A DNA stretch of 64,000 bases from assembly GCA_044892525.1 (NCBI GenBank), contig CM097885.1, positions 139,500,001 to 139,564,000 on the forward strand, written 5' to 3'. The stretch is from Schmidtea polychroa. Taxonomy: Eukaryota. The first letter of the stretch is position 1. Each line of letters begins with the position of its first letter. Under the pieces are notes generated by a model, which saw nothing but the letters and a program-made list of their open reading frames with translations, did not search any database and was not told the DNA's origin. Position numbers and translations under genes: made by a program. Below are positions 14,844-47,653 of the stretch, piece by piece.

Positions 14844-15593
14844 ATTTAAATGACTTGTCTGGTCGTTGAGTAGTTATAACATCAACTCTAGTAATTGCTT
14901 CCCTCGGTCTATCAAAAATGTGACCTTTTATATTAATTAAATACTTTATAATTACTAATTTTTAATAATTAATTGCAAATTTTAACTATTTCTAATTTTT
15001 TAATTCTTGTTTATAATTTTTTGCCTATTTACAGTAATATTTAATTTCTAAATATAGATTTATTTATTTCTTATTCTATTTCTGGTAATTCTTTTAATAT
15101 GCCTTCTATTTATGGTATTTTAATCTGTACACCGAGGCAAGCCTCAAGAGAGCCAGGCCTAACAAATGTTGCGGGTACACTACTCGGATGACCCCTTTCT
15201 AGTGCAACTTTAGTCTAGAGGATTAATGCCACCTCGATTTCGCCCATCATTTATTTGGTCATCGCCGAGCGGGACCCGTACATAACTTACACTCCAACAT
15301 AGCACCCGTGAATTGCTTCACGTTGGAACTGTGCTATGCCGGCGAGACGCCAGTAAGCAGGTGAGCCAGCTCCTTCGGACTACTCCTTACTGAGGCCTCG
15401 ACTTCCCAACCCTGACTGCCGATAGAAGGACTTACGTCTACTCATTCCGTCGCCCCATCGCAATATTTCTAGCTGAGTTTACCAACTGACTAATGCTCCT
15501 CATAATTTTATGACTCACAATACCATTTACCAATTTCAACTCAACTGTCTTAAGATGAACACAAAGAAAAAAAACGTATGCAGACAAAAATGG

Positions 15594-15599
15594 TTTATT
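15594..15599 (-). terminator. Likely poly(A) signal AATAAA in the 3' LTR
   Basis: Follows the LTR ORF stop and precedes a U/GU-rich tract. Equivalent position in LTRs B and C. Confidence 0.55.
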
Positions 15600-15733
15600 A
15601 TTAAGATTATCACACAAATATATCTAACACCTATACAATAAAGTTCACGACAACGGGAAAAGAGACAAGGTAAAATGTTATCAGACAATGTTCAGGTCAA
15701 TTCAGAGAACGAAGACTTTTTACGGGGAAGTTC

Positions 15734-16484
15734 TCATTTCTCCCACTCCGAGTCTGCCAATAGATCTTCCAAATCGAAAAACTCAGAGGCGTTTTCCTCC
15801 CAGGTAACACCAGCGGCGGAGGTGATTCGCCCTGAGATCACTGATGCTAAATCGATTGCTGTAGGAGGGTTGATGACTTTGATTGGATGATCCGACGATT
15901 GCTGGTTCTGTTTGGCGGTCACGCGTTCCCGCTGTTTCTTTTTGCGTTCGGCTCTCGATAATTGCCGACGCTTCGGCTTCGCTGCCGTTGGATTGGTCGG
16001 GGGTGCTGCAGAGGTAGATGCCATCACAGGTAACGCTTTACTGGTTCCGGTAAAGATGATTTCTGGTTCTTTGGGTGAGAGTTCGGTCTCTACGCACCCA
16101 TGGCAGGACTTTCCGACTGGAGAAGAAGACCCGCCAGAGATATCATGATGCGCTGGGAAAAGATTACTGGATTCATTAATTGGGATCTTCGCGATCTTCC
16201 TTGTAGTTGCTGCCTGGACGTATAATTTGTGCAGCGCCTCCGACTGCTCTTTTATCAGGCTCCTCTGCGCCCGACTCTCGGAAATCAACGCGTCTCTACA
16301 GTGCTCGCTTCGGTGCAGAATTCTTCTGAACCCCCTTCATCTGGGTGGGACTAAACCATGTCCCCTCCAACTCATCTATCCTTCTTTTGTGCTTTCCGAT
16401 TTGGGCCTGGAGCTCTTTGATAATTGAATTCTTGTCGGAGCAAGAAAAACAAGGTCGAAGAACGGTCTTGGAATTTGGCAACAT
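15734..16484 (-). pseudogene. 3' LTR copy of the LTR ORF, frameshifted near 16319
   Basis: GCAGAATTCTTC here versus GCAGCTTCTTC in the 5' LTR splits the ORF into 62-aa and 184-aa pieces. Confidence 0.85.
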
Positions 16485-18884
16485 TTTTGAGTGACTGTGG
16501 AAAAAAATGAAAAATGAAAATAATTAACTCAACGGGAGTGTCACCATCGGACCACCTTCATACTTTATTGATCATAGACAAAAATATGGGTTTACCAGTC
16601 AAGACAAGTTCTACTGTGCGATGGATCCTCCTACCCTTTGGGTCTTAATCATAAGAAGGTAAATCGATCAAACCAGATTTCGCGCCAAGAAAAGAAGATA
16701 TTACCATTAGTGAGAGAAATTCTAGGTCGATGAAAATGATTATTTATTTAATCCGCTTGAAGTCGTTACTTCACGTTTACCGAGAATCGTGTTAAGTTGT
16801 TGACTTCTTCCCCCCGTACGAGTGATTTTGATGGGTGTATCATATACTGGGGTCGAGTGACTATCTATGAAAAAAGGGGGTCCATAATGTCCGTTGATCA
16901 GTTCCTACAGGATAAACGGAAAGTTATTTAATTTCTTTTTTATTATTTATTCATTCTCTCTAATTACTCACATATGTGTTTTACCTGGTTTACATAATAT
17001 TTATTTAATAATATTCGATATTAATGTTAATGATAATCATGTCAAAATGAAATAATTTCTATGCCATTCATGCTAAGATAATAAAGAGAGAATAATCATA
17101 ATTATGATCGGGTTTATCATTAAAAAATATTGTCTTTATGATATCTGAGCACGGTATCAATGTGAGCTAGTAGCCGACCATTCCTGCTAGGTAGATAAGG
17201 AAATGTCAGCCCAGTGGTTGACTATTAATCCGGAGCGGTGAAATCTGATAGCTGTCGGTAGTTTAATTGGCATGTTCGATCTAATTTTACATGAGTAGAT
17301 GCGTGTGTGACTTTGCCTACTGTACTTGGCTACTAGGTAAGTCTGCAACTGGTGACGCATGCAAGGTGCGCTTTCACACACTTAATTATACTACAAATGC
17401 AGGCGTTGAATGTTTGCATGATGGCATTCTCTCAGAATTTTATCCACCGCGTAATCACTCACAATTCTACGGCATATGGTGATGATTTACTAATTCTCAC
17501 CGGATTATTGAAAAAATTATAATTATCTGTATTGCAAATGTTGGATATAGCTTGCTCCAAGGGTGGATTTTTCGTCTTTAATTCCTCAAGCCTAGTTTAT
17601 CAATCTACTCTCTAAGTGCTGGAGGATTTTTTCCTATCCCTGCTGGGTTGCCAACCTCATGAAATACTGGAATTTTATATTTAATTAACAAGATCATCGG
17701 CTAACTTGAAGAAATATATTTTCTTGGTTCGAGTTGGTTGCATTTTTCATTGTTAAATTATTTGATGCCAATAGTTTATGTAATTATGATAATTAATTGT
17801 ATGTAAATTCTTTTATATATAATTCTAAAAATTTATGATAGCGAATCATTTTATGCAATTTAAACTTTTATTTGGAACAAACTCGTTTTTTGTAATTCTG
17901 AATAACTTTTTGGATTAAATCATTTTACATGGTTCTACCATTTATTTACAAGCGGTCATTTCGGGTAATCCTAATACTTGTCTAAAGCAATCTACTTTGA
18001 ACTCCCTTGCAACTATGTCTTTAAGAGAACTTTTAGATGAACGGAATAACAGTTCAGAAGGTCATAGGCTAAAAATCGTCGGAACAGATTCTGAGTGAAA
18101 AGTATGAACATCGAAGATATGTCACAGATAGCCTCACTAAGGTTTGAACAATTCTTGACGCACAACTTACATTGATGATGAAGAAAAAAGTTTTCTTAGC
18201 AAAAACGACATTCGAAAACGATAGTGTGACACCCTCAATCACTGCGCGAATACATCAAAATTCTCCGATTCCTTTATTACATATCTTTGTTTTCAATCAC
18301 TACATGACTATCAATTTTCTGCCACCATTTACCTATAGATTTTAGTCGCACCTTCAGCAATTGGACCCGTGAAGAAGCCCTCACATTTCGGCCCAATCTA
18401 GCTGCGTGATTGAAATACCCTATGTCCACCGGTGGAGCTCCCGAAGGCACCTCACACCATGACATAGAGTATCTCAACGCCACGTTTCTCGCAAGATTGA
18501 ATAGTCTCCAATAATAATTCATAAAAATTAATTCATAAAAGATCAATAATTCTTAACGAGCAAATCATTTATTATTAAGCAAACAATTAATATAAATAGA
18601 GCATTCGAAAATCAAACGAAAAGAAAAACCCTTTTTTTTTTTTTTTTTTTTTTAAATTAAAAATATTATTAAACTATACGCATTACTTAAAAATTCAAAA
18701 TAAGCAATCAAAAATCCTTACCGAATGATTGATACAAGTATGGGCTGAGTCGAAAAGGGTACTATGTCGAATCAGTTAATGCTCGAATATCGTCTAGTTC
18801 TGTAAAAATCTCTTGAATCTTGGAATTGTCCTCGTGAGTTATCGTGCGTTAGTTGCTGGAGTTCTGTTCTGTCGTAGAATAGAT

Positions 18885-18963
18885 TTACCTATTGAGGTGG
18901 TTTGATTAACAGCAAGCTTATTTAAGTTTCACTTACCTATTGAGGTGGTTTGATTAACAGCAA
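18885..18963. repeat. 31-bp direct repeat pair in presumptive U3 (enhancer-like)
   Basis: TTACCTATTGAGGTGGTTTGATTAACAGCAA at 18885 and 18933, and also at 45127 and 45175. Confidence 0.85.
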
Positions 18964-19591
18964 TTGTTATGTTTTTAATGCCTGCTTATATATTAATTTT
19001 TTGTTTGCGCGGACCAATTAGAATTGAGTACCGCTTAATTTTATTAATTTAATTTATTTTCCTTGTTTTTGAGTTATTTCTTCTTATTTTCTTTATTAAA
19101 ATTATGTTTTTATTTATTTTCCTTAATTTTCTTATTATATACTATATTTTCTGTTGTTTTCCGTCATTCTATTGTCCTATTTAATTTTTCTCATCTTTAT
19201 ATTTTTTTGTTTTAATTCTTATTTTCTAATTATTGTTTTTCTTATGTTTTATTCTATTTTATTTGTCAATTTATTTGTTTTTATTTTTTTTTTTTTTTTT
19301 TATTTTATTTTAGTTAAGTTTGCCCTAATTTCCCAACTACCCTTCGACTCAGCCCAACAAATCACTCGGGGACCCATCAAAATTGCGTCCCGCAATTGCA
19401 TAGTTATCTTACTTCATGCATTCATAAAAAGGATATATCGAAACAATTATACTACAATAACAACAACAATTTATTCTAAGATATAGGTCAAATCAAGACC
19501 AAGCAAGTATCACTTAAGGTGATAGTTTGTATATACAATAAAAGTTTCTACATATGATAACACCAATGTTTGAGTTAGAGTTTATGAACTG

Positions 19592-20251
19592 TTAACTATT
19601 TGATGCTTCTGCCGGCGGTTGTTGGTTGGTTTGGGTATTGATGTTGAGATAAGTCTGACTGTAAGAATTCGGCTGGATTGGTTGGTTACTCGGGATTCGA
19701 GGTCGGAATGGGGTTGGGTTAAGATTTGTCAGTGGCACTTCTTGAGGATTTCTGTTCGAGGTTACTCTTATTGATGTCGGGATTCTACATTTATTTCTAA
19801 CTTCGTAAATCTTCATGAGTATTGGTAGACATAGGAGGAGGGTTTCTGCGATCACCACATATATGAGATAATGGGTGTCATTGATTTCGGGAGGTGTTTT
19901 TGGCTTTTCTACAAGATTTTCAAAATTCTCTTGTTGCATTTGTTGTTCCAACTGGTCGAATTGTTGGATTTGTTCGAGGATTTGTTTGTTTATCATTTTA
20001 CAAATGGGATTCTTTTTACACATTGTTTGGATGTTGTTGATGTGTGAACGGGTTGATTGAATGGTTTGGATGATATGGATTTTTACTGTCATAGGGTATG
20101 TGCATTGGCCGGATTCTTGTTTAGGTTCTTGATTTTGATTGCGGTAATCTCGTACGATTTTCGGTTGGGCGTTTACTTGTTTGTTCTCCATCAGAATTAT
20201 CAATACTGTCATTGTTATCATCATCTCGCCTCGCATGATACTATTATACAT
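19592..20251 (-). CDS. Accessory type I membrane protein (signal peptide, Cys/coiled-coil ectodomain, TM, Pro-rich tail)
   Basis: 219-aa intact ORF with hydrophobic MMITMTVLIILM and TM segment YLIYVVIAETLLLCLPILM. Confidence 0.7.
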   Translation of the reverse strand: MYNSIMRGEMMITMTVLIILMENKQVNAQPKIVRDYRNQNQEPKQESGQCTYPMTVKIHIIQTIQSTRSHINNIQTMCKKNPICKMINKQILEQIQQFDQLEQQMQQENFENLVEKPKTPPEINDTHYLIYVVIAETLLLCLPILMKIYEVRNKCRIPTSIRVTSNRNPQEVPLTNLNPTPFRPRIPSNQPIQPNSYSQTYLNINTQTNQQPPAEASNS

Positions 20252-20292
20252 TCATTATGGTTTATTTACAATTGGTTTTAGTGACCCTTAAT

Positions 20293-21057
20293 TTAATGGT
20301 TCTGATTTGGGTTATTTTCGGCGATTCTCATCAAGGTGGATTCTGCTTTAATGACTCTGTGTCTTAACTCGGGCAGCATTTCCAACTGTCTGTTCTTTTC
20401 ACGGGCCTCCCTTTTCATGTGCCTTATCTCCTTTTTCAGTCTTCTAATTTCTTCCCGTTTTTTGTCGAGATTCCTTTTTAGTTCGATTTGTAGGAAATCT
20501 TGTTCATTTTCCTGCGAAAGGTTTCGTTGCTGTTGTTGTTGTTGTTGTTTTCTCTCGATCTCTTGGTATTTGCGAATCCATTTCTTCATTTCCTCACTTT
20601 CTCGTTGTTTTTCCTCCAATTGTCGATTTAATTTATTTATAGTTATTTGGTGTTCTTTCGCCTCTGTTTTCCAATAATCCTGGATCACTTCTTCTGCCTT
20701 GAAGCTTGCCCTCTCTTGCCATAGTTCCTCTGCAATCTTTTCCCAGTTTCTTCCTCGTGTTCGTTGTTCTTGCAACCATTCATTCTTCTCTTCAGCTTCT
20801 CTCTTTATTTCTCCTAACACTTCGCACTCCTTCTTTAGTATTTTAATCATTTTTCGGTCTTCTATATATTTGTTTACTAGTCTCTCGTTTTCGTCCTTCT
20901 CTTCTCGTAACTTGGCCTTTAACGTTTGTGTTTCTGTTGTTTCTGCCTCAATCTCTCCCTCTTCTACGTCGCTCGTAATTTCTATTATTTCCTCGATTTT
21001 CATATCTGTAATATGTACAGTTAATGGTGCGCTATAGTGCGACTTATACATATACAT
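20293..21057 (-). CDS. Accessory coiled-coil protein, 254 aa
   Basis: Intact ORF, E/K/R-rich heptads, same strand and codon style as the polyprotein. Confidence 0.75.
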   Translation of the reverse strand: MYMYKSHYSAPLTVHITDMKIEEIIEITSDVEEGEIEAETTETQTLKAKLREEKDENERLVNKYIEDRKMIKILKKECEVLGEIKREAEEKNEWLQEQRTRGRNWEKIAEELWQERASFKAEEVIQDYWKTEAKEHQITINKLNRQLEEKQRESEEMKKWIRKYQEIERKQQQQQQQRNLSQENEQDFLQIELKRNLDKKREEIRRLKKEIRHMKREAREKNRQLEMLPELRHRVIKAESTLMRIAENNPNQNH

Positions 21058-23808: not shown

Positions 23809-23893
23809 TCTATAATTATATGTACAAATAGCTCTTATCGATACAGGTTCGATATTTTATTTACAATTATTTACATTTTAAGCTAGGTTTGGT

Positions 23894-24412: not shown

Positions 24413-25414
24413 CTATATACGTGAGTTTGGAGGGCGCTGAGCGTTCCAGGCCTCCACCCACTGTTCTTGTTTGATATCACTTGGTCGTTTCACTCGATGT
24501 TGGAAATTTCTGATTCGGGTCATCTCTAGTTCTCCGCGATGTCGTTTATCTTTAATTATTTTTATTGTTCCCCCTGTTATGATTAGGAAGGCCCCTGTTA
24601 TTATTATCCCACTGATCCACATCATCTGCTTCACGCTTATATTCTCTGGTTTCTCCTTGTTCGTTAATGTTGATATCGCTTCTGTACCTTTCTCGTTTCC
24701 TCTTTTGCCATTTCCTTTCATCATTTCCCGTATTCTTGCTATTTCCTCGTTCATACCCTCCTTTGCCATCTTTTGTATTTTTTCCATCTCTTCCTCCGAA
24801 ACATAGTTGTCCTGAGCTTCCTCACCGGTTTTCTTGTGCTTTCCGCCTTCGTCCTTTTCGTCGTTGTTTTTCCTTTTCTTCCCTCTTTTCCCCGGGTATC
24901 GTCGACATTCCCTTTTTGATTCGTTCCTCCAGATACAAACCGTGTATTCTTTCGGCGGCTGCTGCTGCGTCACATATTGATGGCATCTCTCACCTGGTCC
25001 TAATCTTGAAATACAGACTTTGTGCTCTCTTCTAGGTTGGAGCTGCGTTATTACTACTTCACCACCTTTTCCTAGGTGTACCTCTTTTCCTTTAACGTTC
25101 GTTATTCTCTTCCCGTCCCGATTTCGGTATGCTTCTTGTATTCTTACTTCTGTTATTGGTTCTGTGTCCTCATTTATCAGTACTAGTTTCTGATACGCTC
25201 TAGACATGCATCTTCCTAGTATGCACCTTTCCTTTAAGTCCCATTCTTCCTTTAAATCCCACTGCTGCTCTTGTGCTTGCTTTTTCTTTTCTTGTTTTAG
25301 TTCATCCTCTTTGCTATCTTGATTCTCCGCTTCTTTGGTTTCTTTTATCGTTCTCGTCCCTCCATGAGCTGTTACTAACTCTATCATGGTAAGCATAATT
25401 ATCATTAATATCAT
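24413..25414 (-). other. C-terminal polyprotein module: signal peptide, FN3-like ectodomain, TM, short tail
   Basis: Signal-like MILMIIMLTMIELVTA; VVITQLQPRREHKVCIS resembles FN3 strands E-F; TM MMWISGIIITGAFLIITGGTI. Confidence 0.55.
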
Positions 25415-28400
25415 ATTTGTCTCTATTTCTTTGTTAGTGAAAGGTAGGCATACCCTCTGTTTTCCATTATTCGGTTTTTCCTCCTCTTTGGTCTTGGTTC
25501 CCGGGCTGTTTCCCTCTCTTTTCGTATCCAAATCCTTGTTTTCCGGTTTATCCTCTTCCGGTTCTCTTTTCCCTTTATCCTCTTTTCGGCCTTTTCCGTC
25601 ATTGTCATCGTGTTTATCTCCCCCGCTGTCGTTTAAAATGTCGTCCCCGACATTTATATCGTTCAATAATCTGCGATATCCTGTTAGCACTCTGTTTCTT
25701 GCTAATTTTGCTTCGAATTCAAACTCTTTTCTACCCGTTGCAGCATGTCTCTTTCTATTCCATTCTTTAACTAACTCTCTCAATTGCATACGACGATGTT
25801 TCCCAATTCGTTGTTGCTCGTTCTGATTTTTCGTGAATTTTAGGTCTTCTCTATTTAATACTATTAAAATAATTTTAGGCGTCCCCCCCTTAGTTAGGGT
25901 ATTCTTTACCATCGCATTTTCTCCGTTTTCGTAGAATTCGTTTACATTTATCGCATATTTATTATTTTGTGGTACTCTCCAGGTTAATAATAATTTCATT
26001 GCTTCTAGATTTTTCCGTACCGTATTCCATTGAAACTGAGATGTGTTTTTGCACATATTTTCAACTTCTTCTTTTGTCGCATTTTTGAAAATAAATCTGA
26101 TCATTTCTAAGTTTGGCTGTATGGTTGCCCAGTCCAATGTGGAGTTCCCTTCGTTTGATTTTTCGTCTAGTCTCGATCCTGATTGATGTAGGATGTGGAG
26201 TGTTTTTGGGTGTATTTTCGTTATAGCTGCATACATCATGGCGGTTTCACCTTGTTCATTTTTCGTGTTGGTTTCCTCGCCCATCTCCCCAAGGATTCTC
26301 ATGATCGTTATTGCTCTATTCTCTTTTGCAGCTAGTATTGCTTGTTGTAGAGGTGTTCTGGAATCCTTTGTTGCCATCGTAAATGCTCGAGGCAAGAAGG
26401 TTTTGATTTTCCCGATATCTAAACCCGTGGTTTGATCTCTTGCGTATGTGTGTACGGCTTTTATTATTTTTGACAATATTATTTCGTCTGATAGCTCTAG
26501 CATTTCCTCGAAGAATACTTCTTTTGCTTTGCGTATTATTGCCTCTTGATCTAGACTCATTGGTTTTGTTTCGATGACGTGGTTTGTGACCGTTTGGTTC
26601 GTTGTTGACTTTGATTCCCTCGGTTTCTCATACCTTATTTTCGTTTTCTTTCCGTTTAGATTATTGATTCGTTCCTCTGCTGTGAGTATTTGGATAATAT
26701 CCAGGTAATTCTCGCGGATGTTATTCATTGTGTCCATCATATATAACACACTTACCGTTTCCCAATATTTATTTCGTACCTGAGTAATGAATTGAAATAT
26801 TGATCTTTCGAATGTGTCGATTCGCTTTTTTAATAACTGCTCCTCTTTATGATTTGTGAATTTTATCCCTCGTTCTAGTAATTGATTCGGAATTTCGAAT
26901 AAATGATGTCCTTTCATAGCTTCTCTCATCAGCGTGTTCTCTCCTCTCGTGAACGCTTCGTTTACGTTGATCATATAATCGTTTTGAATTGGATTTCTCC
27001 ATGTAATTAATATTCCGGTAATTGTCGTCAATTTTTCTTTGATCGCTGTTAACAATCCATCATACATGTTTCCGACTTCTCGATTGTCCTCATATGATAG
27101 TAGTTCCATCAATGACGTGAACGCCTCGGTACTTCTCCCTTCGATAGCATGATGTAGAGCGTTTTTCCGCTCGTGGTCTTGTGTAGTTATTTTCGATCCA
27201 GTATCAAGTAATGCGGTTATAATGTCTTTGGTTTTGCCTCTGTTTGCTGCTATCATTAATGGTGTGTAACCTTGGTTGTTTGTTTGTTCTGTTGATCGCT
27301 TGCAGTCGTGAAATGCTTCTATTGTTTCTAGTATTTGCTCGTTGTTACCTACTTTCATGAGTTTGTGTAATGGTGTGTCTCCGTAATGATCTGTTATTGT
27401 AAATAATATTGGCCATTGGCTTTTGACTACTCGCAATAATGGGTGTGTCCTTTCTCTATTTGCATAGTTCTCGATCATCGTCAATAATCCTCCTAATATT
27501 TCGAAATCTAATCGATCTTTTGCCCATCCAGGTATTTTAATTTTTACCTCTTTTACAATCTTTTCCGCTTCTGATGGTTGGATACCCAATCGTCCAGTGA
27601 TCGGTTCTGCGAGTTGTTGCATCATGTTCATTCTGTAGGTTTGCGAACGTGTGGTTAATGTACGGCCTTCTGGTTGACTAGTGGCTGTTTTTGGAATTGA
27701 TTTGCATCGTGCCACGTTTACGTATATTGGCCTGGTAAATGGGTTATTTACCAATTTCACTCTTACATTGGTTTCGCCTACGAATAAGATCTCATATGGT
27801 CCTTTTCCGTTGCGTTGTAACTTTTTTGTGGTTCCTGGAATTAATTCCGGGGTTTCTATCATTACCCAATCACCTGTTTGAAACGTATGTTGCTTCACGT
27901 TTTTCTTTCGATCGTGTAAATCTTTATAACTTTCCTGGTAGAACTTGATATTTAATCCCGCAGTTTCCCAAATTTCTTGCATTCTTTCCTTGAATTTCGT
28001 AACATAATCATCGATCTCCATATACTGCGATATCGGTGGTTGGTATTCCAGGTCCATTGGCATATTACACTCTCTTCCGTACATTAATTTGAATGGGCTC
28101 ATTTTCGTTGATGCGTGAATCGACATTCTGTATGCCATAAGACATAGGTTTATATATTCGTCCCAATCTCGTTGGTGACGGTCGACGTAGTTTGATAACA
28201 TTTGTATAAGTGTTCCATTAAATCTTTCCGTCATCCCATTGGTTTGAGGGTGGTATGGAGATGTTCTTAGTTTTGCTATTTTGAAGTAATTTGTTACTTC
28301 GCTCATTATCTCACTCATAAAATTAGTTCCCTGATCGGTTAATATCTGTTTTGGTGTTCCATATCGGCAACATATCTCTTCTACCAAAATTTTTGCGATT

Positions 28401-34400: not shown

Positions 34401-37400
34401 CACATTTCGGCTCCTGTCGGCCATCTCACTAATAGCGGTGATCTTTCTCCTGGTTCATCGTCACTATCTTCCAGGATTATCTCTTCAACTTCTTCAGTTT
34501 CATTAGATTTACTTGGTGCTTTGTTCGGACTTGGAGTACTCAAACTGCCTTTTGTTGGTTTAGTAATTTTACTTTTCCTTTTTAACGGTTTCCCCAACGT
34601 TTCGGCCATTGTTAATACATTTGTCTCTTCCAATCTCATGGGTGTTATTCCGACGTCTGCATTATCGTCTAGTGATTTTCCGAATAGTTGCAGATGGAAT
34701 GGAGTTTCATATGCTAATTTCTTTTTTAATTCTCTAATTTTTGTTGTTGGATGCACCTCTAGTTCTTCGATGCTCTTGTCCGGGTACTTGATTCGGATGT
34801 GATACCTCTCTTGGGTGTCTTGTGCCCATTCCTGATTTCTCCATTTTCGAATAATTTGTTCTAGCTGTTCTGGATACCATTCATTATATTGCCGGTATTC
34901 CTCTATTGCCTTTGCCATTCCTCTCAGATTGTGGATGTTCTCTGATGTCTTTAAGATGATGTTAGCCAACGCTACTACTTGGCGTTTTTGATTTTTCGCT
35001 CCCATTGCTAAGATATCGCCTAATTGTTTATATCTTTCTGTCTCTTCTCGTTCTCTTGCTTCCGTCGCTTCCTCGCCGTCCATATCAGCATATTCACGTT
35101 CCTTTTTCCTCATTGCATGAATATGTCTCGCTTCATTTTCGCTTTCTGATGTGACATCCGTCTCGCTTTCGTCATCTGATGTCTGTCCCCTTGCTTCCTC
35201 TTCATATTCTGGAGGTTCCTCTTCTTCTTCCTCCGTTTCACTTTCTGTCTCACCAATGTCTGTTTCTACGAAGATTCCTTTCCGGATTTCCCATTCCTTA
35301 TTTTCAGCATTCCACACTCTTTCCCATGGGGTTCGTCTGCAGGATCTGGTGCTTAATTTCGTGATTTTTCCTTGTAGTTCTTTTTCTTTTAACCATTGTT
35401 GGTGGATTTCAATTATTTCTGTAGATTTCTGATATAACGTTTTCATCCGGTCTCGTATTTCTTTTTGATAGATTACATCTCTTGTTCGAAATTCATCCAT
35501 TGGTACTATCCTGATGATCTGATGATTGTCCCACATACCCAATTCGCTTAACGAGGTGTCGTCTTCTGCTCGTAATATTATTTTATCGTACATCATGACT
35601 ACATCATCCACCATACCATCACTACTTTCGCTACGTACCTTTTCCGTTATCTCTTGGTTTATCTTTGATACCAAGTCATCCACTGTACTCTGATTGCTCA
35701 TTTTTATTCGTCGTTTTTCTTCGTTCGGTAACCATATGGTTATTTCCAACCTCTGTGGCTGGGTTTCTTTCAACCTTCCATATTTGTGGATCAAATTTAT
35801 GGTTCTCCAATCACTCATCCGGAGCATTTCTGTATCTCGCAATCGGCTCATTAGTTCGTACATGGCTGGGGCTCGTCTGGTGATGAGTAGATCCCAGTTG
35901 TCTTCCACTTGTTCTTGAATTTGTTTGATCAGCTTATCCAGGTTTCGTCTCAGAGTACATTGTTTTATTTGTTCTAATTTCAATTTGATATTAAAATCAT
36001 ATTCTGCCTTGGCATCTTTAGCCCAATCGTAAAGGTTGGCTGGTTGTTTTTCTTTATGCAACTTTAGTATTTGCGTTTCTCCTGGCCATATTAGTGCATC
36101 TACTAAGTGCATATCTGGTTTAATCTGTTCTCCTTGGTATTGATACAGATATTCTTTCTTTCTCGAACTTCCCAAATGTTCTCGTATCCAATCGAAAAGT
36201 TCGTCGGTGACTGTATTTTTTATCCACATTCTTTCAAGTCCTCTACTCGTTCCGATTTTTATTACATACCGCGTGGTATCGGCCTGCTTCATTTTTCCCA
36301 TATACTTTTTTATAATTGATTTTTCTTCGTTTGGTATTAGATCTTTCTCGTTTCTTTCCAATTTCATCACTTTTTGCACGAATCGCCTGAATGGTATTAC
36401 GTCGATGAACTCTTGGTTCCTCACTACTACTGGGAGTATTTCGGCTACCTGTTTTATCGCTTCCTCCCTTGCTTTTCTCAACTTTATTTCGATATCTTCG
36501 TCTTCACTTTCACTGGTTATCTCGCTTTCGCTTTCTTCTTCTTTGATTTCCCCTTTTGGAGGTTCGCTTATTTTATTCGGCTGTAGTATTTCTCCACCCA
36601 AACTACTTACATAGTCTTCTTCTTCGTCTGACGATGCTACCTCTTTTGTCCTTTTCATCATATTGATTTGCAAATTTCTCATCCTTGGTACTCTCTTTAG
36701 TTTCTTTCTTTCGAATATCGTTGTTTCTTCTGATTCTAATTCTTGTAGCATTTGGTGGTTTAGTTGACTGGTTTGTTCCTTGCTCTTGTTATTTTCATCT
36801 TCTGTCTCGGCTTTCGCTTTATTATGTTCTTTTTCGATTTTATCTTTTATCTTTTTCCAGAATATTTTCTGAATTCTCTGGTTTCCTTTTAAAATCGTGG
36901 TTGAATTCTCTGTTTTCATTTCCGTTGTTGTTTCTGTTACCTTTTCTGGTTCAGTCATGGGTACTACCCTTGGGTTTTTCCCGTAATTGTAGCAATACTG
37001 GCTTTTCATGTCTTTTACTAACTTCATCATATTAATTCGCAATGGTTGTTCTTGTCGTTGTTGGTTGCGTTCTTGTTTTATCCTCTCTTCCTCGGCCTGT
37101 AGTCTTTGCCATTCTTGTACATGTTGATGCACTTCATAATTGTTGAGATTTTCGGTACTCCTCATCATACGTATATTCTGGGTTTGTTGTGGTGCTGATT
37201 CCGGTCTCGGTCTCATCATTTGTTGCATCATCTGTTTCATCTGCGAGATTTCCTGCATAACGTTCATTTGTTTTCCTTCGCTAGGGTTACTTTGTCGTTG
37301 CGGATTCGCCATATAATTATTATTTCGCTGTGGTGGTCGTTGTTGTTGGCCCCTTTCTCGGCAATCTCTGGAGATGTGACCTGGCTGACCACAGTTAAAA

Positions 37401-38266
37401 CAACCTCTCAATTGGCATACATTTTCGGTATGTCCACGCCGTCCGCAACGATTACAATTTGAATTTCTATAGCAATCTCTGTCCCAGTGTCCTGGTTTAC
37501 CGCATGTTCGGCACTGCTTGTTATCGTTCATATTTCGTCGATTATTGAAATTGTTCTCATTATTCGGGTTGTTACGATTACCATTATTCCCATTTGATCG
37601 TCCTTGTGGTGGTTTGAAAATTTGGTGCGCTCCTGGTATAAATTGATTCATTTTCGGTTCTTGATTGTTGTTATCTCCGTTATCCGCTTTCGCTATTGCT
37701 GTCATTATCCTTCCCTCCTCTTGCATAATATTCATTTGAGCTGGAAGGTGGAGCTCGCATCTTGTAGCCCAATCTATGGCTTCCTCTAATGTTTTGCACA
37801 TTTGACAACCTACTGAGGCTCTTACTTCTTCTCGGCGTAATCCCTCTATGAAATAACCGATCAGATTTTCTTCGGGTAATTTTCCATTCATTGCTTTCTT
37901 CGCTAATCTCCGCAATTCACTGGCATATAATGTTATCGATTCGTTTGCTCTTTGTTTCCTATTTGCTAGTTCGCCCAACGCCTGGTTGATTGGCTTACTG
38001 GCTCCGAAGGTTTTCTTCAGGAATGTTTTGATATCTTCCCACTTTTCTAATTTCGTATCTCTCTCTTTAGTTTCTAAATATACTTCTAATGCGCTATCGC
38101 ACAAAAACAACGGCATCCTTTTACTAATTGCTTCGGGTGTCCATCCACATACAGTGATATAAACTTCAAAATTAGTTATGAACGTTGCTAACTTGTTTGC
38201 ATTTCCGTTGAACGGTTCTCCTCTGAACTTTTCTTTATACTCGTCGGTTTTTACGACATTCGTCAT
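24413..38266 (-). CDS. gag-pol: Single Gag-accessory-Env-Pol-accessory polyprotein frame (4618 codons) with two internal stops (33134-33136 TAG, 29501-29503 TAA)
   Basis: ORFs 33134-38266, 29501-33109 and 24413-29380 share one frame. The gaps translate without further stops: EDCK*LFRTGALKMHNG and KPIQE*VKKDISFIWEKEQQQAFETLRDKL...PFLLATDAS. Confidence 0.92.
26090..26370 (-). other. Ankyrin repeat block 2
   Basis: SRTPLQQAI, NEQGETAMMYAA, NEGNSTLDWA. Confidence 0.8.
27100..27400 (-). other. Ankyrin repeat block 1
   Basis: DHYGDTPLH, NNQGYTPLMIAA, DHERKNALHHA. Confidence 0.88.
27700..28760 (-). other. pol: Integrase (H2C2 zinc finger, DDE core, GPY module)
   Basis: H-X5-H...CLTC; ISMDVVGPLP, LTDQGTNF, NGMTERFN; GPYEI. 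Confidence 0.97.
29030..29500 (-). other. pol: RT connection and RNase H
   Basis: ATDASGYAAGAIL, NYSVTEREALAII, TDHQPL, NANADCMSR. Confidence 0.95.
29504..30330 (-). other. pol: Reverse transcriptase
   Basis: RFCIDYRKLN, LDLKSGYWQ, MPFGLTNAPASFQR, and catalytic YIDD at 29807-29818. Confidence 0.98.
30740..31100 (-). other. pol: Retropepsin aspartic protease
   Basis: AMIDTGANVSAI (DTG at 31028-31036) and CIIGTDLM. Confidence 0.95.
31570..33463 (-). other. env: Envelope-like glycoprotein resembling chuvirus (Jingchuvirales) G, with own signal peptide and TM
   Basis: Signal MMTMMIWMLCTSGATG; motifs YCGQYS, GSCNGG, LYANNK, DCSLNK, GEVMYTYQC, CANEL, FVQPVTRI, GGMYS, FPARRESIL; TM FGQMMAGILGIILIIQIV. 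Recognised by motif recall, not by search. Confidence 0.75.
33590..34040 (-). other. Divergent Bcl-2-like helical domain
   Basis: Ends in BH2-like HIIRAGGWKRL, preceded by a BH1-position hydrophobic helix HLVVITYLMYNL. The NWGR motif is absent. Confidence 0.55.
34605..34810 (-). other. Ubiquitin-like domain 3
   Basis: YHIRIKYPDKSIEELEVHPTTKIRELKKKL...LQLFGKSLDD matches the beta-grasp pattern. Confidence 0.65.
35500..35755 (-). other. Ubiquitin-like domain 2
   Basis: LEITIWLPNEEKRRIKMSNQSTVDDLVSKI...LSELGMWDNHQIIRIV. Confidence 0.55.
36057..36271 (-). other. Ubiquitin/SUMO-like domain 1
   Basis: YVIKIGT...LFDWIREHLG...YQYQGEQIKPD...LIWPGETQIL. Confidence 0.45.
37361..37513 (-). other. gag: Three CCHC zinc knuckles (nucleocapsid)
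   Basis: CRTCGKPGHWDRDC, CNRCGRRGHTENVC, CFNCGQPGHISRDC. Confidence 0.97.
37760..38266 (-). other. gag: Gag capsid region
   Basis: Retrotransposon-gag pattern RKQRANESITLYASELRRLA...YFIEGL...KTLEEAI upstream of the knuckles. Confidence 0.85.
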
Positions 38267-39630: not shown

Positions 39631-40030
39631 TTACGACTGGCTGGCACTATTCAACAGCTCAATCTTCCTCCTTCTGATCGGTTGGACTATTCGACAACTC
39701 GATCTTACGACTGGCTGGCACTATTCAACAGCTCAATCTTCCTCCTTCTGATCGGTTGGACTATTCGACAACTCGATCTTACGACTGGCTGGCACTATTC
39801 AACAGCTCAATCTTCTTCCTTCTGATCGGTTGGACTATTCAACAACTCGATCTTACGACTGGCTGGCACTATTCAACAGCTCAATCTTCCTCCTTCTGAT
39901 CGGTTGGACTATTCAACAACTCGATCTTACGACTGGCTGGCACTATTCAACAGCTCAATCTTCCTCCTTCTGATCGGTTGGACTATTCAACAACTCGATC
40001 TTACGACTGGCTGGCACTATTCAACAGCTC
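39631..40030 (-). repeat. 74-bp x 5.4 tandem array of alternating 34/40-nt hairpin subunits in the leader
   Basis: Units start at 39631, 39705, 39779, 39853, 39927 and 40001. There are no unique spacers, so it is not CRISPR. Confidence 0.95.
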
Positions 40031-40181
40031 AGCTTTAACATTCTTTACTATGCATGCTTCTACTTCTCTTTTCTTCTTTTACTCAAGATTACCATTTTCT
40101 CTGTCTATTTTTAATTTGTTGACTTAATCTTTACCGCTCGGAAGTGTGTCCCCTTTCCCCCCTTGCTCAAAACGCACGACG

Positions 40182-40594: not shown

Positions 40595-41131
40595 TTATTC
40601 ACCATAATAAACCATATGAGTTTCTTTTATTTCATGCCTACATATCGTACATCGTTTTAAATCGTTCACACATTCTTCGCAGTGACTGAGGTGTCCACAC
40701 GGCAAAAACAGTACGCGAATAGGACGAAGTTTACAAGCACGACAAGTTCGTAGTAGAGTCAGTTTTTCTTGTATTTTCCGCTCGATTGTATCTGATATGG
40801 TATTTAGTGGATCTTTTATACGTTGATAATCAAGATTTAATGCTGGGTGGTTCAATCTCTCTTGATACCATTGATACACGGTTTCCGGGTTTACCTTCCC
40901 CTCTGGGTGACTTAGTCCTGTGGCTAATAACATGTCGTTGGGGACGGCTGGTGTTTGCCCGATTGCTTGAAGTAGTATGATGTTAATTCTTTCTCTTTTT
41001 TGTGTCAGCGTTTTAAGGGAGTCATTCTCGATGTTTATGAAGTTGATTAGTTGTTGTATCTGGTCCACGAATTCCGTCATGTCTATTAAAAAAAATGTTT
41101 CAGTAATATATGACTTCGTTTCGTCAAACAT
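40595..41131 (-). CDS. IAP-type C3HC4 RING protein (no BIR), first ORF after the PBS
   Basis: CRACKLRPIRVLFLPCGHLSHCEECVNDLKRCTICRHEI at the extreme C-terminus, as in IAP E3 ligases. Confidence 0.85.
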   Translation of the reverse strand: MFDETKSYITETFFLIDMTEFVDQIQQLINFINIENDSLKTLTQKRERINIILLQAIGQTPAVPNDMLLATGLSHPEGKVNPETVYQWYQERLNHPALNLDYQRIKDPLNTISDTIERKIQEKLTLLRTCRACKLRPIRVLFLPCGHLSHCEECVNDLKRCTICRHEIKETHMVYYGE

Positions 41132-41381: not shown

Positions 41382-41399
41382 ATCCCGGCTGAGCCCCCA
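41382..41399 (-). promoter_or_regulatory. Primer-binding site (tRNA-Pro-like) of element A
   Basis: TGGGGGCTCAGCCGGGAT has 16/18 identity to the canonical tRNA-Pro PBS. A 7-nt spacer TAATTTT separates it from the LTR. Confidence 0.85.
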
Positions 41400-41833
41400 A
41401 AAATTATGTTGCGGGTACACTACTCGGATGACCCCTTTCTAGTGCAACTTTAGTCTAGAGGATGAATGCCACCTCGATTTCGCCCATCATTTATTTGGTC
41501 ATCGCCGAGCGGGACCCGTACATAACTTACACTCCAACATAGCACCCGTGAATTGCTTCACGTTGGAACTGTGCTATGCCGGCGAGACGCCAGTAAGCAG
41601 GTGAGCCAGCTCCTTCGGACTACTCCTTACTGAGGCCTCGACTTCCCAACCCTGACTGCCGATAGAAGGACTTACGTCTACTCATTCCGTCGCCCCATCG
41701 CAATATTTCTAGCTGAGTTTACCAACTGACTAATGCTCCTCATAATTTTATGACTCTCAATACCATTTACCAATTTCAACTCAACTGTCTTAAGATGAAC
41801 ACAAAGAAAAAAAACGTATGCAGACAAAAATGG

Positions 41834-41839
41834 TTTATT
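41834..41839 (-). terminator. AATAAA poly(A) signal copy in the 5' LTR
   Basis: Same site as 15594-15599. Confidence 0.5.
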
Positions 41840-41973
41840 ATTAAGATTATCACACAAATATATCTAACACCTATACAATAAAGTTCACGACAACGGGAAA
41901 AGAGACAAGGTAAAATGTTATCAGACAATGTTCAGGTCAATTCAGAGAACGAAGACTTTTTACGGGGAAGTTC

Positions 41974-42723
41974 TCATTTCTCCCACTCCGAGTCTGCCAA
42001 TAGATCTTCCAAATCGAAAAACTCAGAGGCGTTTTCCTCCCAGGTAACACCAGCGGCGGAGGTGATTCGCCCTGAGATCACTGATGCTAAATCGATTGCT
42101 GCAGGAGGGTTGATGACTTTGATTGGATGATCCGACGATTGCTGGTTCTGTTTGGCGGTCACGCGTTCCCGCTGTTTCTTTTTGCGTTCGGCTCTCGATA
42201 ATTGCCGACGCTTCGGCTTCGCTGCCGTTGGATTGGTCGGGGGTGCTGCAGAGGTAGATGCCATCACAGGTAACGCTTTACTGGTTCCGGTAAAGATGAT
42301 TTCTGGTTCTTTGGGTGAGAGTTCGGTCTCTACGCACCCATTGCAGGACTTTCCGACTGGAGAAGAAGACCCGCCAGAGATATCATGATGCGCTGGGAAA
42401 AGATTACTGGATTCATTAATTGGGATCTTCGCGATCTTCCTTGTAGTTGCTGCCTGGACGTATAATTTGCGCAGCGCCTCCGACTGCTCTTTTATCAGGC
42501 TCCTCTGCGCCCGACTCTCGGAAATCAACGCGTCTCTACAGTGCTCGCTTCGGTGCAGCTTCTTCTGAACCCCCTTCATCTGGGTGGGACTAAACCATGT
42601 CCCCTCCAACTCATCTATCCTTCTTTTGTGCTTTCCGATTTGGGCCTGGAGCTCTTTGATAATTGAATTCTTGTCGGAGTAAGAAAAACAAGGTCGAAGA
42701 ACGGTCTTGGAATTTGGCAACAT
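41974..42723 (-). CDS. LTR-encoded 249-aa protein (coiled coil, TWFSP motif, basic Arg-rich motif)
   Basis: Intact ORF with homologs in LTRs B and C. A splice acceptor lies 10 nt upstream of the ATG. Confidence 0.75.
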   Translation of the reverse strand: MLPNSKTVLRPCFSYSDKNSIIKELQAQIGKHKRRIDELEGTWFSPTQMKGVQKKLHRSEHCRDALISESRAQRSLIKEQSEALRKLYVQAATTRKIAKIPINESSNLFPAHHDISGGSSSPVGKSCNGCVETELSPKEPEIIFTGTSKALPVMASTSAAPPTNPTAAKPKRRQLSRAERKKKQRERVTAKQNQQSSDHPIKVINPPAAIDLASVISGRITSAAGVTWEENASEFFDLEDLLADSEWEK

Positions 42724-42733
42724 TTTTGAGTGA

Positions 42734-42770
42734 CTGTGGAAAAAAATGAAAAATGAAAATAATTAACTCA
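42734..42770 (-). promoter_or_regulatory. 3' splice (or trans-splice) acceptor for the LTR ORF
   Basis: TTTTCATTTTTCATTTTTTTTCCACAG|TCACTCAAAAATG. Confidence 0.6.
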
Positions 42771-44870
42771 ACGGGAGTGTCACCATCGGACCACCTTCAT
42801 ACTTTATTGATCATAGACAAAAATATGGGTTTACCAGTCAAGACAAGTTCTACTGTGCGATGGATCCTCCTACCCTTTGGGTCTTAATCATAAGAAGGTA
42901 AATCGATCAAACCAGATTTCGCGCCAAGAAAAGAAGATATTACCATTAGTGAGAGAAATTCTAGGTCGATGAAAATGATTATTTATTTAATCCGCTTGAA
43001 GTCGTTACTTCACGTTTACCGAGAATCGTGTTAAGTTGTTGACTTCTTCCCCCCGTACGAGTGATTTTGATGGGTGTATCATATACTGGGGTCGAGTGAC
43101 TATCTATGAAAAAAGGGGGTCCATAATGTCCGTTGATCAGTTCCTACAGGATAAACGGAAAGTTATTTAATTTCTTTTTTATTATTTATTCATTCTCTCT
43201 AATTACTCACATATGTGTTTTACCTGGTTTACATAATATTTATTTAATAATATTCGATATTAATGTTAATGATAATCATGTCAAAATGAAATAATTTCTA
43301 TGCCATTCATGCTAAGATAATAAAGAGAGAATAATCATAATTATGATCGGGTTTATCATTAAAAAATATTGTCTTTATGATATCTGAGCACGGTATCAAT
43401 GTGAGCTAGTAGCCGACCATTCCTGCTAGGTAGATAAGGAAATGTCAGCCCGGTGGTTGACTATTAATCCGGAGCGGTGAAATCTGATAGCTGTCGGTAG
43501 TTTAATTGGCATGTTCGATCTAATTTTACATGAGTAGATGCGTGTGTGACTTTGCCTACTGTACTTGGCTACTAGGTAAGTCTGCAACTGGTGACGCATG
43601 CAAGGTGCGCTTTCACACACTTAATTATACTACAAATGCAGGCGTTGAATGTTTGCATGATGGCATTCTCTCAGAATTTTATCCACCGCGTAATCACTCA
43701 CAATTCTACGGCATATGGTGATGATTTACTAATTCTCACCGGATTATTGAAAAAATTATAATTATCTGTATTGCAAATGTTGGATATAGCTTGCTCCAAG
43801 GGTGGATTTTTCGTCTTTAATTCCTCAAGCCTAGTTTATCAATCTACTCTCTAAGTGCTGGAGGATTTTTTCCTATCCCTGCTGGGTTGCCAACCTCATG
43901 AAATACTGGAATTTTATATTTAATTAACAAGATCATCGGCTAACTTGAAGAAATATATTTTCTTGGTTCGAGTTGGTTGCATTTTTCATTGTTAAATTAT
44001 TTGATGCCAATAGTTTATGTAATTATGATAATTAATTGTATGTAAATTCTTTTATATATAATTCTAAAAATTTATGATAGCGAATCATTTTATGCAATTT
44101 AAACTTTTATTTGGAACAAACTCGTTTTTTGTAATTCTGAATAACTTTTTGGATTAAATCATTTTACATGGTTCTACCATTTATTTACAAGCGGTCATTT
44201 CGGGTAATCCTAATACTTGTCTAAAGCAATCTACTTTGAACTCCCTTGCAACTATGTCTTTAAGAGAACTTTTAGATGAACGGAATAACAGTTCAGAAGG
44301 TCATAGGCTAAAAATCGTCGGAACAGATTCTGAGTGAAAAGTATGAACATCGAAGATATGTCACAGATAGCCTCACTAAGGTTTGAACAATTCTTGACGC
44401 ACAACTTACATTGATGATGAAGAAAAAAGTTTTCTTAGCAAAAACGACATTCGAAAACGATAGTGTGACACCCTCAATCACTGCGCGAATACATCAAAAT
44501 TCTCCGATTCCTTTATTACATATCTTTGTTTTCAATCACTACATGACTATCAATTTTCTGCCACCATTTACCTATAGATTTTAGTCGCACCTTCAGCAAT
44601 TGGACCCGTGAAGAAGCCCTCACATTTCGGCCCAATCTAGCTGCGTGATTGAAATACCCTATGTCCACCGGTGGAGCTCCCGAAGGCACCTCACACCATG
44701 ACATAGAGTATCTCAACGCCACGTTTCTCGCAAGATTGAATAGTCTCCAATAATAATTCATAAAAATTAATTCATAAAAGATCAATAATTCTTAACGAGC
44801 AAATCATTTATTATTAAGCAAACTATTAATTTAAATAGAGCATTCGAAAATCAAACGAAAAGAAAAACCC

Positions 44871-44902
<32 letters not shown>

Positions 44903-47653
44903 AAATATTATTAAACTATACGCATTACTTAAAAATTCAAAATAAGCAATCAAAAATCCTTACCGAATGATTGATACAAGTATGGGCTGAGTCGAAAAGG
45001 GTACTATGTCGAATCAGTTAATGCTCGAATATCGTCTAGTTCTGTAAAAATCTCTTGAATCTTGGAATTGTCCTCGTGAGTTATCGTGCGTTAGTTGCTG
45101 GAGTTCTGTTCTGTCGTAGAATAGATTTACCTATTGAGGTGGTTTGATTAACAGCAAGCTTATTTAAGTTTCACTTACCTATTGAGGTGGTTTGATTAAC
45201 AGCAATTGTTATGTTTTTAATGCCTGCTTATATATTAATTTTTTGTTTGCGCGGACCAATTAGAATTGAGTACCGCTTAATTTTATTAATTTAATTTATT
45301 TTCCTTGTTTTTGAGTTATTTCTTCTTATTTTCTTTATTAAAATTATGTTTTTATTTATTTTCCTTAATTTTCTTATTATTTACTATATTTTACGTTGTT
45401 TTCCGTCATTCTATTGTCCTATTTAATTTTTCTCATCTTTATATTTTTTTGTTTTAATTCTTATTTTCTAATTATTGTTTTTCTTATGTTTTATTTTATT
45501 TTATTTGTCAATTTATTTGTTTTTATTTATTTATTTTTTATTTTATTTTAGTTAAGTTTGCCCTAATTTCCCAACTACCCTTCGACTCAGCCCAACACAA
45601 ATAAATACCCATAGTGCTTCACATCGACATAAGAGAGTTGGCGTGGTAAAGTGCAGAGGGCTAATATCTACCTACTCAGGCTAATCAGTGAGGGCACATT
45701 GATCAAACCGCCATTGGTGATTATTTTATTCAATTAGGATAATTATTTGTTTCAGTTAATTTTAATTTAATTTAAATTAATTTCTTATTATTTTTTACTT
45801 TTACCCTGAGTAGTCCGGTTATCGCCAATAATTTTATTGGCCTCCTTTTTCGATTATTATGTCTTCTTTTCGAATATTGGTGTATATGTTGTAATCTAAT
45901 ATGTTTCTTCTGCAACTGCTTGGGGTTTTCTTTTCTATTTAATTTTTTAATAACGTGTTTTTTTTAATTAAGGTATTTTATTTTTATTTTGATTAACTTC
46001 TTGCTTTTTGACTATCACTTTGACAGATGTCGGCAATGATTTTTATTGTCTATCAATGGTCTGACCCCCAACAACACATGGAACATCACCGGAATATTAC
46101 AGCAGACATTTACTGTGAACAATTAGACTAGCTTTGACATATTTACGGCCAGCATTAGTCAATGGCAAGAGATATTCTAACAACAACATAACACAAGTGA
46201 GCAAAATGAGTGGAGAGGAAATGCATAAAGTAAAAGATATTTTGTTCTATAATTCTAAGAAAAAGGAAATAACAAAACAAATAAAATTAAACAAGGAAAT
46301 TTTTAATTAACAAGTACAATTTAAAAGTAGAAACATAAAACAAATGGAAAATGGAATTACATTACAGCTTGTCCGAAATAGCGAATAGACAACCGGGAAG
46401 TCGCTAAACTATAAAGGGGAAAGTTGAAATAAACTTGCATATCTCGACAGCTACCCGAGATAACAGGCCATAAAAGTGAAACACAACTTTGATTAAATGA
46501 CACAAAAGAGGATCAAGAGAAATTACAAAAAAATTATTAAAAACCAATATTTTCAACTTAAAGAAATTGGATCAATTCTACTAATTATAGAAACCAGAAG
46601 CAATAGTTACGTGGTTTAGAATTCCCAGTATGCTACAGGCGTGCTATTGTTACTGAAGGGCTGCAACAAGTATTCAGTCACTGTTGTAACATCGAATTAT
46701 TTTGTGTCATTGTGAATTGCTATTCTATAGAAGATTATATTGTTTGAAATTCGTTATTGCTATCAATTAAGATATGCTTTTGTATCACATCAATAATTCT
46801 TTTATATTTCAGCAACAACCCAAACATATTATATACCGTTCTCAGGAACACAACTTAACCCTTTAATTGCGGAATTAAATTTCATAAAGTCAGGAAACGT
46901 GTCAATTATCCGTCAACAAAAAGTTAAAGATATCATTGTGATTTGAAACACGTGTAGACGACCAAGTGAACATAATACATTTAATATATATTAAAAATAT
47001 CTTTCCCGAAGGGTTGTTAAAAGTAGAGACAATGGTCTATTCAATAATATTTGGATTTATCCGCATCCAATAGGTGTAAAAACAGAACGTTTAAGAATTT
47101 CTAGGATCTCAATTCTGGCAAAAGAGCTTTCTTTGTGTCGAAAGACCTTATATTTTTATGATCGAAATTACAAATCTTATTATTTACCGGTACTCTTAAT
47201 ATATTAACTAAAGACAGTAACGTCTTAATAAAAAGATGAAAACATTAATAGGACAACAAAATGAGGTTCTTAATCATCCACCAAGCCTGAAAAATGTTCT
47301 TGGATCATTCCATGGCGAATTATCAAATTTCACAAAGGTCTGGCTTATAATATGGGCTACTTTCTCGAATTAGAATTAAAATTGTATTTATTGAAGATTA
47401 TTTCATTAAAAATGTAACCTACCAATGACAAACTTTTGGAAAAAAAATTTGTTACTTAATATTGTATAATAAAATATGAAATAAGTGAAACAACAATTAT
47501 AATTAATGTATTTCAACACTAATCAACCAACCTTTTAAGCACAAAAATTGAAAACTATAAAGAATTACGTATGCAAAAATAACACGCATAAAACTTTATT
47601 AATTTTGTTATATAAATGCTTCAAAAATATTACACAATTTATTTACTTTAAAA

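Follow-up and report, generated by a model that had tools for sequence, protein, structure and literature searches.

Giant Gypsy elements of planarians have reportedly been described under the names Burro and GYPSM1 by Jurka in 2007 and by Grohme and colleagues in 2018. Burro elements exceed 30 kb and carry a 4,873-amino-acid (aa) ORF1 (open reading frame 1) along with MATH_TRAF_C, BIR, ankyrin, BCL2-like, Ubi/SUMO-like and dUTPase-like domains (PMC6431247). Their envelope protein (env) lies in frame between BCL2 and the protease and matches mononegavirus fusion proteins, and the elements have been proposed to be integrated proviruses interfering with apoptosis and ubiquitination, a proposal which its authors called untested (PMC6431247). 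A 2026 survey further lists six GAG-ENV-POL errantiviruses of Schmidtea mediterranea with an env of the herpes simplex virus (HSV)/glycoprotein B (gB) type (eLife RP108449, PMC13524379). Here we analyzed a 64-kb stretch of the Schmidtea polychroa genome (assembly GCA_044892525.1, contig CM097885.1), referred to as the window, in which a first-pass annotation had noted a large env-bearing Gypsy element with a toolkit of death-receptor, NF-kB and ubiquitin modules.

The locus is best explained as a young and meanwhile broken insertion of a Burro-type Ty3/Gypsy element that is active and present in high copy number. It spans positions 15167-45597 on the minus strand (30,431 bp) with an internal region of 22,047 bp, and the layout annotated at first proved exact in its coordinates: two long terminal repeats (LTRs), a 4-bp target-site duplication (CAAA), a primer-binding site and, between them, a polyprotein in the minus-strand order gag, env, protease, reverse transcriptase (RT), RNase H and integrase (Table 1). 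Paired LTRs, target-site duplication, an 18-nt primer-binding site, capsid plus nucleocapsid, the order of the pol enzymes and a Ty3-type RT place the element in Ty3/Gypsy (Metaviridae) by criteria taken from the ICTV profile (PMC7879559). The insertion is young, as the two LTRs differ by only 0.38% (16 substitutions in 4,188 aligned bases). The primer-binding site is complementary at 18 of 18 positions to the 3' end of the host tRNA-Pro(TGG) plus CCA, and the last 40 nt before the 3' LTR contain no clean purine run that could be called a polypurine tract. In the host genome, tRNA-Pro(TGG) genes form a large tandem array with a 475-bp period from G000:C1:130901009 onward. The tRNA of this array is the primer tRNA of the element, with 1,602 exact pattern matches genome-wide; ARAGORN confirmed four tRNA-Pro(TGG) genes in one stretch of the array (L093) and none in the stretch L092.

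The polyprotein is represented by three adjacent ORFs of 1,825, 1,210 and 1,695 codons, which share one frame and are separated by single stops that the first-pass annotation had missed, and the copy in the window is unable to make env or pol by itself. Intact copies were found elsewhere in the genome. From 12,646 first-look candidates the 37 best-scoring other copies were taken; 25 of them possess the full 4,732-codon frame and 27 at least 4,700 codons, and the open frames at the stop positions are longer in all 37 (3,238-4,794 aa). Programmed read-through at the two stops is ruled out, since all of these copies have longer open frames there. Copy searches with different parts of the element started from 1,913 to 12,646 first-look candidates and yielded 38-150 scored matches per query; the copy number in the planarian genome is high, as in Burro-type elements. 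Some copies are arranged in tandem and share LTRs (G000:C4:46237401-46291880, C158:14681-56427 and C4:69859134-69912450), with a spacing of about 26.2 kb or 20.5 kb among the matches listed.

In Pfam scans the polyprotein runs from a gag capsid and CCHC knuckles through a Monjiviricetes fusion glycoprotein to protease, RT, RNase H, integrase and ankyrins, and the catalytic motifs of its enzymes are intact. The RT is nearest to that of Ty3 among solved structures (E 1.7e-61). A conserved 105-aa segment between protease and RT gave no dUTPase match, and a candidate protease-site motif, whose pattern was chosen post hoc, occurs seven times in the window polyprotein versus about 1.6 times expected in shuffles. 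The glycoprotein of the first-pass annotation was recovered as a match to PF24664 (E 5.7e-52 and 2.1e-10), in frame between gag and pol and there between the Bcl-2-like domain and the protease. It keeps its cysteines, furin-type site and transmembrane helix; its assignment as a gB-like ectodomain is based on PF24664, hydropathy and by-eye colinearity with Smed_errantivirus_5. A hydrophobic segment at the position of the putative env signal sequence is also seen in aligned homologues, and the junction of Bcl-2-like domain, hydrophobic segment and env recurs in three further families of the genome and in distant database homologues.

A second membrane protein follows the integrase at the end of the polyprotein, and by eye three related families have a similar layout. 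Of the FN3 and transmembrane (TM) module suggested earlier, the TM helix stands, accompanied by a signal-like segment and a low-confidence immunoglobulin (Ig)-like sandwich (predicted local distance difference test, pLDDT, about 60), but FN3 entries (Z 6.1-6.8) tie with other Ig folds, and Pfam gave no match for this module. A protein database search with the same region, a weak test, was likewise without match.

Between gag and env the polyprotein contains further cargo. Two of three proposed ubiquitin-like (UBL) domains were recovered by fold (Z about 10-11.6), whereas the first is beta-grasp-like in secondary structure at a pLDDT of 30-48 and found no match in fold searches; the AlphaFold model of the region, built from 10 sequences with a mean pLDDT of 52, contains three beta-grasp-like units. 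A five-helix domain directly ahead of the third UBL domain (34811-35059, minus strand) is well predicted (pLDDT 72-85) and recurs ahead of UBL domains in related families; MIF4G and CID, considered as candidates for it, gave no match. As a C-terminal GG is lacking, the UBL domains are ruled out as cleavable or conjugable tags. The Bcl-2-like module reached only E 0.067 in Pfam with a single sequence, and was substantiated by a seven-sequence profile that ranked Bcl-xL first (E 5.5e-5); its structural model is weak (pLDDT 38-72), and the identification comes from the profile. A protein database search with the UBL/Bcl-2 region, again a weak test, gave no match, and the ESM Atlas returned no usable match for element sequences. 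Behind the integrase, the ankyrin repeats were confirmed, but the label 'IkB-like' was not: no IkB occurred among the best 60 of 228 and the best 60 of 120 PDB matches, which were generic ankyrins. No MATH domain was found within the polyprotein, the sole MATH match in the window being that of the accessory TRAF.

Outside the polyprotein, the accessory set consists of six internal ORFs and one gene within the LTR. The TRAF is indeed full length with RING, zinc-finger region and MATH; its best PDB matches are TRAF3, TRAF1 and TRAF2, and it is free of stops in 88 of 89 scored copies. An IAP-type RING had also been noted, and here the cIAP-type RING was borne out (best PDB match BIRC3, E 1.9e-11, with cIAP2 and cIAP1 the best matches), although no BIR was present in the 12 ORFs scanned nor found by tblastn of the window and the downstream stretches of six copies, and the name IAP does not apply. 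The LTR gene, which the first-pass annotation did not list, was scored in 150 genomic matches with aa identities down to 70%, and 134 of these have no stop within it. NCBIfam searches of the five orphan ORFs yielded nothing beyond one sub-threshold match. Contigs from sequencing runs guessed to be RNA contained no splice joints, a result that is uninformative on expression.

Selection was assessed by pairwise Nei-Gojobori counts of the window copy against six copies, hand-picked to span 96-100% TRAF identity. All modules are under purifying selection. The lowest mean ratio of nonsynonymous to synonymous substitution rates (dN/dS) of all modules was that of the env ectodomain (0.009, for the part after the stop), while the pol regions gave 0.025 (RNase H-integrase), 0.053 (RT) and 0.105 (protease region). 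For the cargo within the polyprotein, the means were 0.045 (Bcl-2-like), 0.085 (UBL region), 0.11 (Ig-TM) and 0.17 (ankyrins), and for the accessory genes 0.16 (TRAF) and 0.065-0.35 (orphan ORFs). The LTR gene gave 0.05-0.33 against 14 copies. With dN/dS well under 1 and the accessory modules travelling with the element in many copies, the expectation that the captured modules matter to the element was upheld. In the RING gene, 12 of 15 copies had a dN/dS of 0.07-0.20 with dS above 0.1, and the three closest copies (0.73, 1.16 and undefined) have too few changes to judge. Its protein is only 78% identical between copies whose pol is 99-100% identical; positive selection as the cause is ruled out, as the divergent copies have a dS of 0.7-1.7 and a dN/dS of 0.07-0.17. 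These values instead indicate that the divergence arose by recombination between old lineages.

At least three further env-bearing families are present in the genome. The closest sister family (G000:C1:127698000-127732999) has a 4,791-codon frame that is colinear with the window element (89% identity in the RT core, 61% in env and 35% from gag to the UBL region), and its set of extra modules is colinear at 25-35% identity. In addition, it possesses a MATH domain in the polyprotein, a TRAF gene and a BIR-RING IAP gene, which is the published Burro1/GYPSM1 layout. As the window element has neither the in-polyprotein MATH nor the BIR gene, cargo moves in and out between families. Two smaller env-bearing families (L011, L013, L014 and L016), one with a 3,334-codon frame, contain two helical-plus-UBL units, a Bcl-2-like domain and, behind the integrase, a beta-rich membrane protein, and correspond by eye to Smed_errantivirus_2 and _1.

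The host has TRAF-like genes of its own (L050-L054), with single long open frames of 455-476 aa. They can be aligned with the full length of the element TRAF at 26-30% identity, and most of their flanks are free of element proteins. Derivation of the host TRAF expansion from the element is unsupported, as 12 of the 22 host MATH rows form a clade, starred in the tree, without any element rows. In this unrooted tree of 22 sampled host loci, the element TRAF rows take no resolved place among the other host TRAFs, and the data neither establish nor reject a single origin (p-AU 0.149). The element TRAF is of old origin and falls outside the large host clade sampled.

How might such an element work? 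Judging from its topology, the polyprotein would be threaded through the membrane of the endoplasmic reticulum co-translationally at two internal signal sequences. Gag, the UBL domains and the Bcl-2-like domain would stay cytosolic, with the first signal as their tether; env would be lumenal, Pol and the ankyrins again cytosolic, and the second surface protein would form the end. Signal peptidase and the element's own protease would then cut out Gag, a membrane-anchored env, Pol and the second surface protein. Env could carry particles between cells of one animal, e.g., from differentiated to stem or germ cells. The TRAF, the RING ligase and the Bcl-2-like domain, for which the env signal sequence is probably the anchor, would prevent death of the producer cell and dampen or redirect ubiquitin signalling of the TRAF/TBK1 type. 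In view of what is known of the family, we consider it probable that env moves particles between cells and that the Bcl-2-like, TRAF and RING proteins protect the producer cell and alter TRAF/TBK1-type signalling.

This reading is supported by the anatomy of the element, the intact frames elsewhere, env being the most constrained module, and the conserved Bcl-2-like/signal/env junction. It is further supported by the published Burro provirus hypothesis, by the candidate protease motif, by Burro1 RNA, which the text compared of PMC8532177 reports in live differentiated cells once PIWI silencing is lost, and by host TRAF genes, which according to the text compared of PMC13563047 are induced by TBK1. 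Several points weigh against it. Particle formation, fusion, expression and the effect on apoptosis are all inferred from the sequence, and the env signal sequence falls below the hydropathy threshold used. Purifying selection speaks for usefulness to the element, not for a particular function, and the six copies behind the ratios are mutually related and were all compared with the window copy, so that they are not independent. The RING comes without a BIR, the Bcl-2-like domain has a degenerate BH1, the ankyrins are of a generic kind, and the UBL domains are non-conjugable. The first three, together with planarian NF-kB homologues described as highly divergent in the text compared (PMC13563047), render the initial NF-kB/death-receptor label over-specific, with no support found for its NF-kB part.

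The missing BIR and the degenerate BH1 would also suit a different use of the same element, in which the cargo serves assembly, trafficking or the removal of host silencing factors, with E3 ligases and ubiquitin-like adaptors directing restriction factors to the proteasome, and env perhaps acts only in budding into internal membranes. Most of the cargo is indeed ubiquitin-system hardware (the TRAF RING, the cIAP-type RING and the UBL/UBX-like folds); however, Bcl-2-like domains are kept across distant families, the sister family's BIR-RING IAP gene points to cell-death control, and an env with cysteines, furin-type site and transmembrane helix retained speaks against this use, which we regard as unlikely.

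Alternatively, the cargo may switch signalling on, with the TRAF and the second membrane protein mimicking a receptor complex that drives survival or proliferation signalling and the element's own LTR, in analogy to the adaptor proteins of oncoviruses. The TRAF is full length with RING rather than a truncated decoy, and two extra transmembrane proteins have cytoplasmic tails, but full-length TRAF3-like proteins can also inhibit; we find this improbable. A reading of the extra modules as neutral passengers, or as genes domesticated by the host, in an ordinary Gypsy element would fit a copy broken at two places, but can hardly be upheld and is already largely refuted by dN/dS, every value being well under 1, with modules that travel with the element in many copies and a colinear sister set at 25-35% identity.

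Beyond the reading that env spreads particles and the cargo protects the producer cell, a more far-reaching proposal is conceivable but falls short of being probable. Burro-type elements may be working enveloped viruses within the planarian body and, with seven accessory genes (one of them in the LTR) and five kinds of polyprotein cargo, may rank among the most gene-rich reverse-transcribing viruses, their genes and modules being exchanged between families by recombination. The env signal would also serve to anchor a viral Bcl-2; TRAF and RING would rewire death and immune signalling so that producers survive to infect stem or germ cells. If true, an accessory arsenal resembling the one of large DNA viruses would be at work in a retroelement, within an animal whose heritable genome resides in its stem cells.

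Table 1. Features of the element within the 64-kb window (position 1 is the first base of the window; a dot marks features without strand).
Feature	Position	Strand	Remarks
5' LTR	41407..45597	-	4,191 bp, TG..CA ends
3' LTR	15167..19359	-	4,193 bp, TG..CA ends
Target-site duplication, 4 bp CAAA	15163..15166 and 45598..45601	.	same 4 bases on both sides
Primer-binding site, tRNA-Pro(TGG)	41382..41399	-	7 nt from 5' LTR
LTR-encoded gene, 249 aa	41974..42723	-	copy in 3' LTR frameshifted
Accessory ORF, 178 aa, C-terminal cIAP-type RING, no BIR	40595..41131	-	
74-bp tandem repeat, 5.4 copies, in leader	39631..40031	.	
Gag: capsid domain and three CCHC knuckles	37352..38266	-	first Met at 38266
Ubiquitin-like domain 1 (tentative)	36056..36271	-	beta-grasp-like strands and helix, pLDDT 30-48
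Ubiquitin-like domain 2	35498..35752	-	FAF1-UBX Z 10.0, root-mean-square deviation (rmsd) 2.4, 77 aligned; no C-terminal GG
Helical domain, then ubiquitin-like domain 3 (34589-34810)	34589..35059	-	ubiquitin Z 11.6, rmsd 1.6, 71 aligned; no C-terminal GG
Bcl-2-like domain	33578..33934	-	BH2 motif kept, BH1 degenerate
Internal signal sequence of env (putative)	33419..33478	-	about 35 residues after BH2; PF24664 match begins here
gB/chuvirus-type (class III) envelope ectodomain	31673..33418	-	furin-type site near 32672-32683, transmembrane helix 31673-31753
In-frame stop inside env	33134..33136	-	break in this copy
Aspartic protease	30803..31078	-	Pfam RVP E 8.6e-10
Reverse transcriptase, Ty3/Gypsy type	29504..30316	-	
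In-frame stop between RT and RNase H	29501..29503	-	break in this copy
RNase H and integrase (H2C2, DDE, GPY)	27701..29476	-	
Generic ankyrin repeats, two blocks with about three each	26051..27403	-	Pfam Ank_2 E 1.2e-16
Second membrane protein, polyprotein end after integrase	24416..25426	-	signal-like 25367-25426, Ig-like beta-sandwich 24947-25234, transmembrane helix 24566-24634
Accessory ORF, 119 aa	23894..24253	-	homologue in sister family; dN/dS 0.14
Accessory ORF, full-length TRAF, 462 aa	22420..23808	-	RING, zinc-finger region, coiled coil, MATH
Accessory coiled-coil-like ORF, 351 aa	21171..22226	-	dN/dS 0.10
Accessory coiled-coil-like ORF, 236 aa	20293..21003	-	dN/dS 0.065
Accessory ORF, 213 aa	19592..20233	-	signal-like N-terminus, one transmembrane helix; dN/dS 0.35

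The remainder of the window contains fragments of other elements and a probable host exon. In the left flank, decayed fragments of a related element at 676-1882, 8226-8854 and 10270-10835 (73-81% nucleotide identity) cover gag, leader, RING ORF and LTR gene, and an ORF at 2524-3036 (minus strand), 89% identical to an LTR-region ORF of the sister family, represents a sister-family LTR fragment. On the other side, an open frame at 47654-48145 (minus strand) encodes a bHLH domain (Pfam HLH E 4.2e-5) and is probably a host exon; it lies 2 kb from the 5' LTR of the element on the same strand. A Tc1/mariner-type DDE transposase fragment is located at 52547-53179 (plus strand), and inverted-repeat structures at 58884-59394 and 54067-54205 are possibly similar to miniature inverted-repeat transposable elements.

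Compared with canonical Metaviridae such as Ty3, the element shares LTRs, an 18-nt primer-binding site, capsid and nucleocapsid, and the order protease, RT, RNase H and integrase, but differs in an env upstream of pol instead of after the integrase, an internal region of 22 kb, a coding LTR and the lack of a canonical polypurine tract (PMC7879559). With the planarian secretory cell nidovirus it has in common one giant ORF with captured ankyrin repeats; that virus is an RNA virus without reverse transcription, and the text compared mentions no TRAF, Bcl-2 or RING cargo (PMC6211748). Gag-env-pol order and the gB-type env are shared with Smed errantiviruses 1-6, and env is colinear by eye with that of Smed_errantivirus_5, about 100 of 190 positions being identical (PMC13524379). 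Since about half of the env positions differ, the element represents a related family and not Smed_errantivirus_5 itself. The main text of that survey contains neither 'accessory' nor 'Burro' and gives no tRNA type for the six elements.

The closest correspondence is to Burro/GYPSM1, as the first-pass annotation had suggested in regarding the class as perhaps partly described. Common features are a length above 30 kb, one huge polyprotein, a gag with three CCHC knuckles, Ubi-like and BCL2-like domains, env between BCL2 and protease, ankyrins, TRAF/MATH, accessory ORFs, a tandem repeat and a high copy number. Burro-type polyproteins comprise about 4,900-5,100 aa and internal regions up to 25 kb, with which we take the 4,732 codons of the window family to agree, as does its 22,047-bp internal region. 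Novelty of the architecture itself could not be sustained, as the Burro layout including env is already published (PMC6431247) and a catalogue of Schmidtea elements with gag-env-pol order and gB-type env exists (PMC13524379); the discovery value is, therefore, modest. In contrast to Burro1/GYPSM1, the window element is without a MATH domain in its polyprotein and lacks a BIR gene, and its TRAF is a downstream accessory ORF, whereas that of the Dugesia tigrina element lies upstream. The LTR gene, the tRNA-Pro site and the C-terminal membrane protein do not appear in the Burro text of PMC6431247, figures aside. An env more constrained than integrase, the conserved cargo and the LTR gene sharpen the question raised there (PMC6431247) of proviruses meddling with apoptosis and ubiquitination, and the selection data name single proteins for tests in a standard regeneration model. 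Our literature search found no match for what is added here, which comprises the evidence of selection, the gene within the LTR, the tRNA primer, a second membrane protein and the reshuffling of cargo; Grohme 2018, Jurka 2007 or the figures may already show the LTR gene or the C-terminal membrane protein. By its sequence, the element is best placed in a Burro-type family, set apart from Burro1/GYPSM1 by the published descriptions.

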